This document shows, in pieces, positions 2,775 through 63,784 of a DNA stretch of 64,000 bases. The notes below the pieces were generated by a model. That model did no database searches and was not told where the DNA came from. It saw only the letters and a program-made list of their open reading frames with translations. The stretch is taken from the sequence record OP870144.1. One strand, 5' to 3'. Made by a program: the position numbers and the translations under genes. Within the stretch, counting starts at the first letter, position 1; each line of letters begins with the position of its first letter. The stretch comes from Escherichia phage vB_Eco_F25.

Positions 2775-4591
2775 TACTGGCTCATCCATTCTTTACGAAG
2801 GTCAGCATTATCTCCCATGAGCATTTCAAAAAGCTCTTTCCAATTCTCAGGAAGTTTAACAACATCATAAACTGGGTTTTGAATCATCTCACGATATTCA
2901 GATTTTTCCAAAGAGCCAAGTCCTTTAATATAACGGATGCTATGTTTAGGTAGAGCATCTTTGGCACTCTCATATTCAGCGACTGTATAAAACCATTCTT
3001 GTTTTTTACCGACCTGAGCGATGATTACAGGAGTTTTGACAAAGCGAATTCTTCCTTGTTCAAACAATTCTGGCCAATTACTAAAAAATCCGAGCAGAGA
3101 AGGATAAATGCTTCCTAGACCATCGTGGTCAGCATCAGTCATAATTGCAATATTATGATAATTCAAGTTTTCAGCTTTTTCACCAAGAACCAATCCAGTG
3201 ATTGCGCAAATATCAAACAGTTCTTTGTTTTTAAGCATATCAGCATATGACATACCCCAACTGTTGAGAACTTTACCACGCAATGGATAACCACCATGAA
3301 GTTCTTTATCACGAACATCAATAAGATATCCGATAGCAGAATCACCCTCAGTCAAGAAAAGAGTAGTATCAGCATCTTTACCACAAAGATTCGCTTTAAT
3401 ATGTTTATGAACCTTGGCTTTAGAAGCCTTTTTAGCTGCTTTAGTTTCAGCTGCTTTTTCTGCTGCCAATTTACGAGCCAAGGCAGCTTCAATAATTGGC
3501 ATTAAAATTGCTTCATTATTTAAAATAGCACGTGAAATCTTTTTAGCATCAAGCTGAATATGACTACGGATTTCACCAAATGGAGAAGTCAGACGCTCTT
3601 TAGTCTGAGAATCAAATCGCATGTTTTTCATATCACGAACAAACATAACGATAGTCAAACATTCTTTAACACGTGCTTTAGTTACATCAATTTTGAATTT
3701 ACGTTTGATTTGTGGAATAAGGTCTTCACAAATATCATCCATAACACAATCAATATGATGGCCACCATTCTTGGTATGAATGTTATTGACGTATGTTAAT
3801 TGACGAAAACCATCCGGTGAACGACCAACCGCAATAGAACAATTTTCTTGTTCTTGAACGATAGCATGTTCATCATATTGACGTGCATATTTCTTAAAAT
3901 TACCCTGAACCTTTTTACCATTAAAGGTAAATTGAATATCAGGATAAACTACCGCAAGTGTCTGGAGACGATCCAGCGTAATGTCAAGATAAACTTGAGA
4001 TAACTCATTAGTTTCAAATGACATAAAATCGGGAATGAAAGTAACGCGAGTTCCTTTCCATTTTCCAGGAATATCTTCCCATGATTTATTTTCCATGCCG
4101 TTTGAACAACGAACTACAATATTATTTTGACCGTCGCCAGTTTCACCGACAAACATCACAGAAAAAATGTTAGTTAAACTAGAACCAACACCATTCATAC
4201 CGCCAGTGACGCGTTCTTTATCATCACCAAAGTTACCGCCTGCTTTTGGAATAGTCCATGCAGCAACTGGGCCAGGAATTTCTTCACCGGTAGGTGTTTT
4301 AACCATCGCTTGTGGAATACCACGACCGTTATCTTCAACTGTTACTTGATTGTTTTTGATAGTAACATTAATTTTATTTGCGAATTTAAACTTAGTACGA
4401 ATACCTTCATCTACTGAGTTATCGATAATTTCATCAATAAGCTTAACAAGACCAGGTACATACTGAACACTTTCCCATTTACCAAACAGAAAGCGCTCAT
4501 GCATTTCATTAGCAGAAGAGCCAATATACATGCCGCTACGCTTTTTGATATGTTCAATATCGCTCAGAATTTTAATTTCATTCTTAATCAT
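2774..4591 (-). CDS. 39: DNA topoisomerase II large subunit, single 605-aa form (T4 gp39 plus gp60 equivalent)
   Basis: ATG at 4589-4591 (ORF-track start is GTG one codon upstream); MIKNEIKILSDIEHIKKRSGMYIGS GyrB-like ATPase N-terminus; no gene 60 split or mobA insertion. Confidence 0.9.
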   Translation of the reverse strand: MIKNEIKILSDIEHIKKRSGMYIGSSANEMHERFLFGKWESVQYVPGLVKLIDEIIDNSVDEGIRTKFKFANKINVTIKNNQVTVEDNGRGIPQAMVKTPTGEEIPGPVAAWTIPKAGGNFGDDKERVTGGMNGVGSSLTNIFSVMFVGETGDGQNNIVVRCSNGMENKSWEDIPGKWKGTRVTFIPDFMSFETNELSQVYLDITLDRLQTLAVVYPDIQFTFNGKKVQGNFKKYARQYDEHAIVQEQENCSIAVGRSPDGFRQLTYVNNIHTKNGGHHIDCVMDDICEDLIPQIKRKFKIDVTKARVKECLTIVMFVRDMKNMRFDSQTKERLTSPFGEIRSHIQLDAKKISRAILNNEAILMPIIEAALARKLAAEKAAETKAAKKASKAKVHKHIKANLCGKDADTTLFLTEGDSAIGYLIDVRDKELHGGYPLRGKVLNSWGMSYADMLKNKELFDICAITGLVLGEKAENLNYHNIAIMTDADHDGLGSIYPSLLGFFSNWPELFEQGRIRFVKTPVIIAQVGKKQEWFYTVAEYESAKDALPKHSIRYIKGLGSLEKSEYREMIQNPVYDVVKLPENWKELFEMLMGDNADLRKEWMSQ

Positions 4592-60840: not shown

Positions 60841-61018
60841 CTAAACGAATAGGTTCATGAATGCCATATCCTTGAACAGAAATTTCTGTCGTAGGATAAA
60901 TTCCACTAATATCACCCATGTTCCACGCTTCGTTAAATTGCTGTTCGCCTGAATTACTAAACCACTCGGCGAAAGCATTTAGCACATCTTCAGAACCTTC
61001 AATAATTATCTTTGCCAT
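60797..61018 (-). CDS. Hypothetical protein
   Basis: 73-aa ORF. Confidence 0.4.
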   Translation of the reverse strand: MAKIIIEGSEDVLNAFAEWFSNSGEQQFNEAWNMGDISGIYPTTEISVQGYGIHEPIRLVEYDLCTGEEVKYD

Positions 61019-61392
61019 TACAAACTCTCAGTAAAGGTACGAGCAATAACGTCGCGCTGCTGTTCCGGAGTCAGAGAGTTAAAGCGAACTGCATAACCGG
61101 ATACACGGATGGTCAACTGCGGATATTTTTCCGGATGCTTAACTGCATCTTCCAGAGTTTCACGACGCAGAACGTTAACGTTCAGGTGTTGACCACCCTC
61201 GATTTTAACTGTAGGTTGTGTTTCAATTTCAATTTCACGGGCATGCAAACCATAGAAAATTTCTGGGTCTACAAAAGAGTCCTCTTTAAAGGTTTTAGAG
61301 ACAATAATTCGTGCTTGAATACCGTCTTCAAAATAAATAGTACCTTTATGCGTGCCTTCAAGAATTTGATATGCTTTCATATAACCTCTCAA
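61018..61392 (-). CDS. grcA: Autonomous glycyl radical cofactor (GrcA/YfiD-like)
   Basis: 124 aa; C-terminus [61 protein letters not shown] with glycyl radical motif RVSGY. Confidence 0.8.
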
Positions 61393-61718
61393 TTAGAAAA
61401 TAAATTTATCCAAGATTGCTCTTTAATTAAAAATGGCTCAGAATCATATGCCATTAAACTTTGGGTGATTAGTCCTTTAAAAGGTCCATCAATAAATTCC
61501 ATGGTAAAATATGGAATTTTATTCATTAATCTTGCATTAGGAGCAGTGCACAAAACTCTGCATCCTTTGAATACGCCTTTTTGTAATTTGTATTGCTTAG
61601 GATAAAATTCGCTCAAGACATTGTTATTTGCCAAAATTTCAAAATGATTCACCAATTTATTTTTAATAGTTTTTGGCGAAAAATAAAGATATTCGAAAAG
61701 TTGCGTATCTGTCATCAT
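61389..61718 (-). CDS. Hypothetical protein (start likely at internal Met)
   Basis: ORF 61389..61769; probable ATG at 61716-61718 overlapping the upstream stop. Confidence 0.4.
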
Positions 61719-62287
61719 TGCATTCCAATTACGAAAAACTGTGGACGAGTAATACCACCAATGCAACATTTACTATTGCAGCAGTAATGTACAGTGTCAA
61801 TATGGACACTATAAATTTTATCCATATCGGGAGCTTTAACAGGCTCATCAATTATATACAAAATTCGCGAAAGCAATAAACCCCTGAACTTGCTTCCTTT
61901 ATTGCCAATAAAACTGCGCACAGAATCAGTAAATAAGCGGAATCGAATATCATCATTAGAATAACGCGAAAATTCTTTTTTAATGTGGCCCGCAGAAATT
62001 TTAGCGTAAGCTGAAGTATTAGAAAGAACAATAACTGTTCCGCCATCATACAGCCAATTAGCAGCGAAGTTAGTCACAGCAGTTGATTATTTACCGGATT
62101 GACGTCCACCATCTAGTCGAAGTGTGCAATACTGTTTGAGTAAGTCTTCAAATGGTGGGATATAATCGTTTTTACAAATTTCTTCTACTCTAGCATCAGA
62201 ATGGTGTGTAAAAGCATTCATCAGGGATAGATAAGGACCAGTTAAAAATGTTTTCATTTTGTTATCTCTAAATTTGGGCCATTCCAT
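61715..62287 (-). pseudogene. P-loop NTPase gene interrupted by an in-frame TAA inside the Walker A motif
   Basis: ORFs 62087..62287 and 61715..62077 are in the same frame; reads ...LRLDGGRQSGK-TAA-STAVTNFAANW...; putative Walker B LYIIDEP downstream. Confidence 0.5.
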
Positions 62288-62414
62288 GGCGCATGAATTG
62301 TCCGTTTCTGTATTTACCCATTACCGCACTTGGGCTCGACCTTATTACAGGTTGGCGGGAATCCCTCACAGAATCATGAGGTCCAGCTTGTTCCCATGTT
62401 ATTTGAATGTAAAT

Positions 62415-62432
62415 AGGCCTAAGTATAGGCCT
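62415..62432 (-). terminator. Possible hairpin downstream of ipIII
   Basis: aggcct aagtat aggcct inverted repeat. Confidence 0.3.
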
Positions 62433-62434
62433 TA

Positions 62435-63013
62435 TTAATTACCACGGGCTGCATTAGCAACGGCATAAGCGTACTGAACATTAGCGTCCTTAAACGTACC
62501 TTTAGAGGTATCTATTTCTGCCTTAAAGCCGCCTTTAGCCATAACATCGGCAAATTCTTTACGGAAAGCCATTGCATCAAGACCTTTCCATGATGATTTG
62601 TGCTTAGCGAATTCAAGACCAGCGTAGTTGACAGCCTTAGCTAATTTATTATCAATGACCCATTTACCGGCTTTAGGCACAAACTTCGGGCCTTTTTGTT
62701 TAGAGAACAGTTTTAAATTCCAGCGACGAAGATCACTGTCGGCTTTAACAAAAGCTGCGTCTAAGTTACTAGCAACAACATCTTCAATATGAGCAAATTT
62801 AAGTCCGTCAACTTCAATATTTAAATCGGTACGCCAGCGAAGTCCTTCCCAAGCGAAAGCTTTAAAATCGGAAGCTTTTGTAGCTAAGTATCGTTCAATA
62901 GGGGCTGTTTTAGGGTCAAAGCCGTTTCCACCACGATAGTTCCACTCGTCCTTATTAATGCCTTTTGCCTTTACTACAGAAGCTTCAGCAATAAATTCTT
63001 GATACGTTTTCAT
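62435..63013 (-). CDS. ipIII: Internal protein III
   Basis: 192 aa; N-terminal capsid-targeting sequence MKTYQEFIAEA; basic Lys/Ala-rich body. Confidence 0.8.
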   Translation of the reverse strand: MKTYQEFIAEASVVKAKGINKDEWNYRGGNGFDPKTAPIERYLATKASDFKAFAWEGLRWRTDLNIEVDGLKFAHIEDVVASNLDAAFVKADSDLRRWNLKLFSKQKGPKFVPKAGKWVIDNKLAKAVNYAGLEFAKHKSSWKGLDAMAFRKEFADVMAKGGFKAEIDTSKGTFKDANVQYAYAVANAARGN

Positions 63014-63043
63014 TTTTGTTTCCTTGTTTGTTTTGATAGAGTA

Positions 63044-63073
63044 ATTATATCATATTAATACTTAAGCGTAAAC
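63044..63073 (-). promoter_or_regulatory. T4-type early promoter (consensus TATAAT)
   Basis: GTTTAC(63073-63068), 18-nt spacer, TATAAT(63049-63044). Confidence 0.6.
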
Positions 63074-63076
63074 TGT

Positions 63077-63337
63077 TTAAGCTTTACCGCCAGAAATAAT
63101 TCCGAAGTTGTTAAAATCATATCCAATATCGTCAACATCTACTTTAGGGCTTGCTACAACATAAGCAATTTCACTACGTTTTGCATAGGTGTTTATTTCT
63201 CTACCATCGCCGCCTAGGAAAGAATACCCATTACGTTTTAATGAGACAAAATCTTCGGCATCACCAACGAAAGCTTTAACTTTAAATTTGGGGCCTTTGG
63301 CATCTGCTTCAGCGATAAATTCTTGATACATTTTCAT
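63077..63337 (-). CDS. ipII: Internal protein II
   Basis: 86 aa; N-terminal capsid-targeting sequence MKMYQEFIAEA shared with ipIII. Confidence 0.7.
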   Translation of the reverse strand: MKMYQEFIAEADAKGPKFKVKAFVGDAEDFVSLKRNGYSFLGGDGREINTYAKRSEIAYVVASPKVDVDDIGYDFNNFGIISGGKA

Positions 63338-63343
63338 TTTTCC

Positions 63344-63757
63344 TTAGTAAATTGATTTACCATAGTATTTGTACCAAGTAGGGCGTTGAGCAATTTTTTC
63401 ATCTAAGCGAGCTTGACTTATCGCAATGGACGCTTCGGACGGGACATAATTATTACGAAATTCGACAGGGATGTCGGAAATATCCTGGACAGTCGTGTCC
63501 TTGATTTTGAAACCACGTTTCAAGCATTCAGCGATTAGCTCGATTTGACGTAAACGTAAAAATTCGAGTTTGTCGTAAAAGAATGTTACGTGACCTGTGC
63601 CTAAGATAAATGTTGGAGAGATTTTAAAATCCTTTACACGTTTACCGTTTTGAACATGTTTACGGACTGCACCAAATACGCGTGGTAATTCACGATACTC
63701 AGCCATAAGATGTTGGTCGGTCAGTTCAGAAACAAGTGTTAAATTGATACGAGTCAT
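63344..63757 (-). CDS. denV: Endonuclease V (pyrimidine dimer DNA glycosylase)
   Basis: ATG at 63755-63757 with GGAGGAAATT Shine-Dalgarno; [35 protein letters not shown] matches T4 DenV; track ORF starts at an upstream TTG. Confidence 0.92.
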
Positions 63758-63784
63758 AATTTCCTCCAAGTAGTTGATGAATGT

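Follow-up and report, generated by a model that had tools for sequence, protein, structure and literature searches.

Why should a gene be interrupted by a stop codon in the middle of its nucleotide-binding motif when the same reading frame continues on the other side of the stop? This question is raised by a locus in a 64,000-nt stretch of the genome of Escherichia phage vB_Eco_F25 (hereafter F25; sequence record OP870144.1), the whole of which is referred to below as the window. Two ORFs, 62087..62287 (66 aa) and 61715..62077 (120 aa), lie in one minus-strand frame and are separated by a TAA at 62087-62089. This arrangement, described in a first-pass annotation of the DNA, was recovered when we re-read the sequence. 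The annotation had interpreted the pair as one ancestral P-loop NTPase gene that had become a nonsense pseudogene, contained a sequence error, or was expressed by stop-codon readthrough.

An inserted ochre codon in vs.8

The window belongs to a T4-like phage of the genus Tequatrovirus, and by megablast the region was matched in 881 phage records, mostly from this genus. On the minus strand, the gene order is denV (63344-63769), an ipII-like gene, ipIII (62435-63013), a terminator-like hairpin (62415-62432), a noncoding leader, and then the interrupted gene, which is a homologue of T4 vs.8. It is followed by a vs.7 homologue (61389..61718; phrog_2049 at 2.8e-54), the ATG of which (61718-61716) overlaps the vs.8 stop codon in the same layout as in T4, and by vs.6/GrcA (61018-61392). 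This synteny is conserved, with the leader before vs.8 and with vs.8 directly upstream of vs.7 and vs.6/GrcA. Searches for tRNAs and Rfam families around vs.8 were negative. At the opposite end of the window, positions 1-162 are an exact copy of positions 319-480; the 318-nt unit runs across the rIIA stop and takes in rIIB codons 1-52, and the repeat is either a true tandem duplication of rII or an assembly or circularisation overlap that was left untrimmed.

Read on the minus strand, the interrupted frame is ...CTLRLDGGRQSGK-TAA-STAVTNFAANWLYDGG...LYIIDEP...VIGMQ-TGA, with the final stop at 61715-61717, and its continuous translation is ...CTLRLDGGRQSGK-stop-STAVTNFAANWLYDGGTVIVLSN...LYIIDEP...VIGMQ-stop. 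The whole vs.8 homologue occupies 61715..62257 (minus strand) and comprises 179 sense codons, the inserted TAA and the TGA stop, which corrects the initial estimate of ∼190 aa for the ancestral protein to 179 aa. Its N-terminal fragment, MKTFLTG...DGGRQSGK (62090..62257), has 56 codons, the last of which encodes the Walker A lysine, and the 56-aa product is an exact NCBI match to F25_0121 (WBF80000.1) of Escherichia phage vB_Eco_F25. The C-terminal remainder (61715..62086) extends from Ser57 to Gln179 and the TGA; its longest ORF, starting at GTG 62077-62075, encodes the 120-aa product, which is an exact match to F25_0120 (WBF79888.1) of the same phage. Both halves aligned end to end with one protein, T4 Vs.8 / phrog_1488, and aligned to an intact relative at 96% identity. 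The end-to-end alignment of both halves with a single conserved protein argues that the one-gene reading is not due to chance.

Alignment to relatives bore out the claim that the stop codon lies inside the Walker A motif (GGRQSGK-stop-ST, 62081..62110, minus strand) but altered the description of the lesion itself. In all of the relatives aligned (HEMP5, Shinka, W143, Lutter, T4, RB69 and EP32B), the sequence is GGTAAATCA(A/T)..., corresponding to G-K-S, whereas F25 has GGTAAATAATCA, corresponding to G-K-stop-S; the ochre codon at 62087-62089, which is followed by a T, is present in none of these relatives. The codons around the lesion are ggt aaa TAA tca act gct GTG (with the GTG at 62075-62077). 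F25 vs.8 contains three extra bases between Lys56 and Ser57 of DGGRQSGK-ST and retains both the Ser codon (TCA) and the next Thr codon. Where intact relatives without the extra AAT read GGTAAATCAACT, with a single AAT (ggtaAATca), F25 has the tandem repeat AAT-AAT (62086..62091, minus strand), and it is this 3-nt duplication that makes the TAA. The first-pass annotation had placed the stop at the position of the Ser/Thr of GxxxxGK[ST] and had derived it from a single C-to-A change of TCA. Neither detail survived the alignment: the stop has been added between K and S as a codon of its own, ST still follows it, and the lesion is an in-frame duplication of AAT that leaves the TCA in place.

The nearest relative at this locus is HEMP5 (99.3% identity by megablast), which is close only locally; it was absent from the best matches for window positions 40000-64000, and the best matches for this right-hand 24 kb reached only ∼96%. 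With the 3 nt removed, F25 vs.8 (540 nt) is one synonymous base apart from the HEMP5 allele and encodes an identical protein, and no further decay was found, the 123 codons after the stop being equal at the protein level to those of the intact HEMP5 allele. This single synonymous difference from an otherwise identical intact allele indicates that the lesion is either very young or an error. In relatives the gene is intact and conserved, whereas F25 vs.8 as deposited stops prematurely in frame and is a nonsense pseudogene or null allele, in agreement with the earlier suggestion of a nonsense pseudogene or sequence error in a T-even-type phage. The proposal of one ancestral gene likewise stands, both halves corresponding to one conserved protein. 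Rather than two conserved genes sharing the same stop, which the first-pass annotation had named as the finding that would count against it, ∼1000 phage records contained a single-piece match to the whole gene.

The intact Vs.8 family and its leader

What protein does the intact gene encode? A tblastn search with the intact 179-aa Vs.8 matched 1009 phage records, with query coverage of at least 80% in 1007 of these and a single alignment piece in each of 60 records sampled evenly down the ranking; the number of pieces and the coverage expose frameshifts and deletions, not nonsense codons. The matches span the genera Tequatrovirus, Mosigvirus, Dhakavirus, Moonvirus, Karamvirus and Jiaodavirus (Straboviridae) and also include Klebsiella phage F48 (Marfavirus) and an Erwinia phage. 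An intact relative matched phrog_1488, a family without an assigned function, over profile positions 2-177 of 177 (E = 2.3e-79). Conservation down to 39% protein identity is seen for the start (M-x-x-[FL]-L-T), the Walker A motif and the Walker B motif (hhII[DE]EP). Walker A, DGGRQ[ST]GK[ST], was invariant among 16 cluster representatives and 8 genera-level homologues. The Walker B-like motif that had been noted downstream of the stop, read from the sequence as LYIIDEP at 61841..61861 (minus strand), is also genuine in the sense that hhII[DE]EP is kept in all homologues.

The predicted fold of Vs.8 is a single RecA-like ATPase domain, an alpha/beta structure with a parallel sheet that resembles solved NTPases. 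Together with the invariance of both Walker motifs across genera, this prediction upholds the original assignment of the gene to the P-loop NTPases. Searches of Pfam, NCBIfam and PADLOC with Vs.8 gave generic P-loop or helicase matches only, all of them below cut-offs, and a sequence-profile search of the PDB gave nothing below E = 0.1. A search of the literature on vs.8 (with T4, vs.7 or regB) or on vB_Eco_F25 found no relevant work; the W143 record carries the note 'uncharacterized 25.0 kDa protein in regB-denV intergenic region'. On the basis of the conserved motifs, the phrog_1488 match and the sub-threshold library matches, we conclude that Vs.8 is a predicted stand-alone, single-domain ASCE/RecA-like P-loop ATPase of 179 aa.

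Two more specific assignments were considered and rejected. Vs.8 lacks the second RecA domain and helicase motifs III-VI of an SF2 helicase. A terminase large subunit was taken to require an ATPase domain plus a C-terminal RNase H-like nuclease, with Terminase_6N/6C scoring above threshold; Vs.8 has 179 aa compared with ∼400-600 aa, has no nuclease domain, and scored 12.9 bits against a Terminase_6N cut-off of 22. Some vs.8 homologues in GenBank are labelled 'DNA packaging protein', 'large terminase subunit' or 'endoribonuclease', and the terminase, DNA packaging and endoribonuclease labels are unsupported over-annotations.

The start M[KR]TFLT is found in all homologues, and the F25 start is ATG 62257-62255 (MKTFLTG...). 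The more distal ATG at 62287 is not the real start, since it falls within a conserved noncoding leader. This leader (62258..62400, minus strand; core ACCTGTAATAAGGTCGAGCCCAAGTGCGGTAA at 62321-62352, defined from alignments) is more intriguing than the vs.8 lesion. The stretch of ∼145 nt that separates ipIII from vs.8 is more than spacer: the core and flanking blocks are nearly invariant across genera, even where the Vs.8 protein is only 36-45% identical. By blastn, the leader was found in 1021 phage records, usually where no feature is annotated, and a 40-nt core occurs at 92-97% identity in the unrelated Vequintavirus phages V5 and isim and in the 45-kb phage Ivi, next to different neighbour genes. 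The leader matched no Rfam family and had no counterpart in 5,426 E. coli genomes. We also considered whether it might be a small ORF or, as in the T4 annotation, an N-terminal extension of Vs.8, but 1-nt indels and stops break every frame in other genera, and these frame-breaking changes exclude a coding role. Compensatory changes (CG to GC and GU) are seen in the helix that closes the core, and its covariation score was 0.239 compared with 0.073 in shuffles (0 of 500 as high), as calculated from 12 sequences that were the same ones from which the structure was drawn.

Rarity of the insertion and other vs.8 lesions

If the stop codon had a conserved role, it should recur in other phages. A 78-nt query centred on the insertion was compared with a phage collection that was searched without F25's own genome record. 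It matched 188 phage records, none of them at 100%, and the best match, at 96.2%, differed by exactly the 3-nt gap. In IMG/VR, where 8 vs.8 loci only were found, both the exact degenerate insertion pattern and the back-translated 'DGGRQSGK-stop' pattern gave 0 matches. The latter pattern also found nothing related in JGI metagenomes or GTDB genomes; its four JGI metagenome and two GTDB matches were all unrelated to vs.8 by tblastn and are attributed to chance. In a 15-billion-protein collection, the cluster that contains the F25 56-aa product has four members, of which only those from F25 and phage EP32a end at GGRQSGK, and a lookup of contigs encoding the F25 56-aa product returned none. The AAT insertion is private to F25 among the records examined.

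The second protein ending at GGRQSGK comes from the Mosigvirus vB_EcoM_EP32a, in which the corresponding codons are ggt aaa TAA att. Here the ochre codon is a real TCA to TAA substitution at Ser57, the codon adjoining the F25 insertion; it is private to EP32a, with TCA present in the relatives RB69 and EP32B. Like that of F25, the EP32a vs.8 is annotated as 56 aa plus 120 aa. The Walker A stops of F25 and EP32a are independent, having arisen in different genera and by different mutation types. Other lesions are distributed along the gene: Lutter has a frameshift around codon 115; T2 and SV76 have a frameshift near codon 33, with a 35-aa N-terminal ORF in SV76 and 109/110-aa ORFs that re-enter the frame near IGNKGSKF; metagenomic contigs (P0018 cluster) have a frameshift near codon 108; and deletions in two E. 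coli-associated assemblies (P0029 and P0030) have removed all or half of vs.8.

In total, we counted at least 7 independent vs.8 lesions. For at least 7 lesions over 179 codons, we estimate that a neighbour within one codon is expected ∼10-15% of the time, and the adjacency of the F25 and EP32a lesions is mildly notable but gives no strong argument for either a hot spot or selection. From the spread of independent lesions, which affect both natural and laboratory phages, we infer that vs.8 is dispensable for lytic growth and plaque formation, at least in laboratory conditions. A full-length match to vs.8 is nonetheless kept in >99% of records.

Explanations for the stop codon and comparison with known systems

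The explanation that we favor, and which we regard as likely although not assured, is that F25 carries a recent, strain-private null allele of the accessory ATPase gene vs.8 created by a 3-nt duplication, and that the stop marks neither a recoding site nor a conserved split gene. Replication slippage would be the simplest cause of the change from AAT to AATAAT. With TAA introduced between Lys56 and Ser57, translation should end after 56 residues, and the stop context is UAA-U; UAA followed by U is the most efficient terminator context in E. coli. A downstream product would need re-initiation at GTG 62077, which appears to lack a ribosome-binding site (no Shine-Dalgarno or AGGAGG-like sequence was visible by eye in the preceding 25 nt), and the 3′ part of the gene is therefore presumed not to be translated. 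Even if it were made, a re-initiated product without the P-loop could not be expected to bind or hydrolyse ATP. Because the 120-aa ORF lacks the P-loop Gly-Lys and the 56-aa product lacks the Ser/Thr and everything beyond it, the allele is predicted to be ATPase-null, provided that the sequence is right. That F25 tolerates the lesion would be explained by the dispensability of vs.8 in lytic growth. An effect on the next gene is conceivable, in that translational coupling of vs.7 could drop, since the vs.7 ATG overlaps the vs.8 stop (ATGA). A promoter-like sequence, TTGACA-17-AATAGT (61800-61772), lies within the 3′ end of vs.8 at a position matching a promoter annotated in Lutter.

Could the lesion instead be an error of sequencing or assembly, with GGTAAATCAACT as the true phage sequence and the extra AAT introduced by consensus calling in an A/T-rich stretch? 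The privacy of the lesion to one deposited genome, the pristine state of the remainder of vs.8, and the suspicious tandem repeat (318-nt unit) that the F25 genome carries where T4 coordinates conventionally begin are all consistent with this idea, but we think it rather unlikely, because a clean 3-nt insertion outside a homopolymer is an unusual type of error, because real vs.8 nulls exist (the nonsense mutation of EP32a and the frameshifts of T2 and Lutter), and because the reading frames of the other conserved genes in the 64-kb window show no clear break. The last point comes from a quality control in which 95 T4 minus-strand ORFs of at least 80 aa were compared with the window by tblastn. 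A clean single HSP was obtained for 77 of the 83 ORFs with matches, which argues that the assembly is not generally error-ridden. Of the six flagged ORFs, three were cross-hits to paralogues, one was a short duplicate of the 3′ end of rIIA, and the other two were vs.8 and nrdG. Judging from the 5′ over-extension of the query, nrdG probably begins downstream of the stop seen in its alignment and, with this taken as given, vs.8 is probably the sole gene in the window with a genuine internal stop. A different concern is that the EP32a stop at the adjoining codon could point beyond random decay. Inactivation might have been selected, for instance as escape from a host defence that senses Vs.8, or AAATCA in the P-loop might be mutable, with the 56-aa N-terminal peptide perhaps functional. 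Adjacent codons have been struck twice in different genera by different mutations (after codon 56 in F25 and at codon 57 in EP32a), each lesion is private to its own phage, and the conserved N-terminal 56 residues were left intact in both. We nevertheless consider this explanation improbable: the others among the at least 7 lesions lie elsewhere (near codons ∼33, ∼108 and ∼115, plus the two deletions), a chance neighbour is not a rare expectation by the estimate given above, and nearly all records retain the full-length match. The narrower form, in which P-loop inactivation is recurrent and selected, as in immunity escape, and the 56-residue domain is expressed alone, with F25 and EP32a as its two instances, seems to us somewhat more doubtful again.

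The remaining explanations keep the locus functional. Programmed recoding, in which the TAA would be read through or hopped as in T4 gene 60 so that a full-length ATPase is still made, has in its favor that the frame continues across the stop and that gene 60 bypassing is known in T4-like phages (it is annotated in the T4 record). However, the stop is missing from the nearest relative and from the other homologues examined, so that no conserved recoding signal is possible, and we regard recoding as very improbable. The readthrough option raised in the first-pass annotation falls on this absence and on the UAA-U context, and a readthrough product would be GK-X-ST, in which the extra P-loop residue should damage nucleotide binding. 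A hop like that of gene 60 would be without a landing site, because no AAA or AAG codon follows the P-site AAA (AAA-TAA-TCA-ACT-GCT, read directly), and a +1 shift at the lesion would encounter a TAA five codons later. That the 56-aa and 120-aa ORFs are two genuine genes, separately expressed and functional, we hold to be scarcely credible. Both ORFs were called by annotators in F25 and in EP32a, and the GTG lies 9 nt past the stop, where termination-reinitiation is conceivable; against this, the split is not conserved and has arisen too lately for selection to have acted on it; with the catalytic Lys of the P-loop on one side of the break and the Ser on the other, a complete nucleotide-binding site is found in neither piece; and the GTG is not preceded by a Shine-Dalgarno sequence.

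A recent null allele of vs.8, as we favor, carries little weight alone: it adds a further case in which a non-essential accessory gene of a phage has been knocked out in a single strain, and it may be a sequence error. For annotation, it means that F25_0120 and F25_0121, and likewise the EP32a pair, should be described as one disrupted vs.8. F25, EP32a, T2 and Lutter are also natural vs.8 mutants, and comparison with their intact sisters could show the role of an ATPase that is present in ∼1000 genomes.

The T4 orthologue of the interrupted gene is vs.8 (NP_049732.1, locus T4p119, hypothetical protein) of the regB-denV intergenic region. T4 Vs.8 was matched by tblastn at 91% identity over residues 31-219 with the same Walker A and B motifs, and the downstream order vs.7, vs.6/GrcA, vs.5, vs.4, vs.3, regB is common to T4 and F25. 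The two loci differ in that ipIII, not denV, lies upstream of vs.8 in F25, in that the F25 copy alone has a TAA after Lys56, and in that the T4 annotation has 40 residues more at the N-terminus than the F25 gene. The longer annotation is explained by a T4-specific 8-nt insertion that brings the noncoding leader in frame, and the start of vs.8 in the T4 reference is probably 40 codons too far upstream. The likeness of Vs.8 to terminase large subunits (the T4 gp17 N-terminal domain, phrog_2 and Terminase_6N) is limited to the P-loop region. Along with these ATPase domains, the RecA1 domains of SF2 helicases are among the nearest comparators. F25 vs.8 resembles T4 gene 60 in belonging to the same group of phages and in having a stop codon within a frame that otherwise runs on. 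In gene 60 the gap is 50 nt long and conserved, GGA serves as both the take-off and the landing codon, and the nascent peptide provides a signal, whereas F25 has a single private TAA, with neither a matching landing codon nor conservation. The vs.8 nulls of other phages resemble the F25 lesion in being sporadic, lineage-private losses in otherwise intact genomes, and differ from it in the type of mutation: F25 has a 3-nt duplication, EP32a a base substitution, and both T2 and Lutter have frameshifts.

Independent lesions in vs.8

In the Mosigvirus Escherichia phage vB_EcoM_EP32a (OR544954.1), vs.8 (3001-3540 of the extracted locus, L014) also carries an ochre codon, which adjoins the site of the 3-nt insertion found in the window. 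Here, however, Ser57 is changed from TCA to TAA, an event independent of that in vB_Eco_F25, and the gene is annotated as two ORFs of 56 and 120 aa. The Ser57 ochre codon is private to EP32a. The gene is frameshifted in T2, a classical laboratory phage, and in the related phage SV76 (proteins P0112 and P0021; also P0038), and a second frameshift was found in phage Lutter (1744-2280 of locus L003). Deletions were observed in two E. coli-associated assemblies, joining the vs.8 leader to vs.7 in one (P0029) and vs.8 to the end of vs.5 in the other (P0030).

A repeat at the rII junction

Positions 1-162 and 319-480 of the window are 100% identical copies within a tandem repeat (1-480), whose 318-nt unit runs from the final 50 codons of rIIA through the intergenic spacer into rIIB, taking in its first 52 codons. 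Because the repeat covers the rII junction, the rIIB copy adjacent to rIIA is cut to 54 aa. Either the junction has genuinely been duplicated in tandem, or the assembly contains an overlap left untrimmed at the point where T4 coordinates conventionally begin.

The vs.8 start and its genomic setting

The T4 reference CDS for vs.8 (NC_000866; 3754-4413 of locus L004; 219 aa) has 40 extra N-terminal residues. Comparison with window positions 62258-62369 revealed that this extension arises only because a T4-specific 8-nt insertion, GCTTATAG, brings the conserved noncoding leader into frame. Since every homologue other than that of T4 begins at M[KR]TFLT, we conclude that the start annotated in T4 is probably wrong.

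Gene order upstream of vs.8 varies, reading denV, ipII-like, ipIII, vs.8 in the window (62435-63769); e, ipIII, ipII, denV, vs.8 in T4; and denV, two hypothetical genes, ipIII, ipII, vs.8 in phage W143 (locus L002). The leader remains joined to vs.8 in all three orders.

A conserved noncoding leader

The leader (62258-62400, minus strand; core 62321-62352) was also present in comparison loci L012, L015 and L025-L032. Its core, ACCTGTAATAAGGTCGAGCCCAAGTGCGGTAA, and the flanking blocks are near-invariant among Straboviridae genera whose Vs.8 proteins are just 36-45% identical, and indels exclude a coding role. A search of E. coli genomes gave no match to the element, and Rfam holds no family for it. 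Approximately 1021 phage records contain the leader, most of them lacking any annotation there, and an Erwinia phage has two copies in tandem. The 40-nt core is found, at 92-97% identity, in the unrelated Vequintavirus phages V5 and isim, as well as in Ivi, a phage of 45 kb. Compensatory changes were observed in one helix closing the core, in a set of only 12 sequences. The leader may be a new RNA motif of phages or a site of protein binding.
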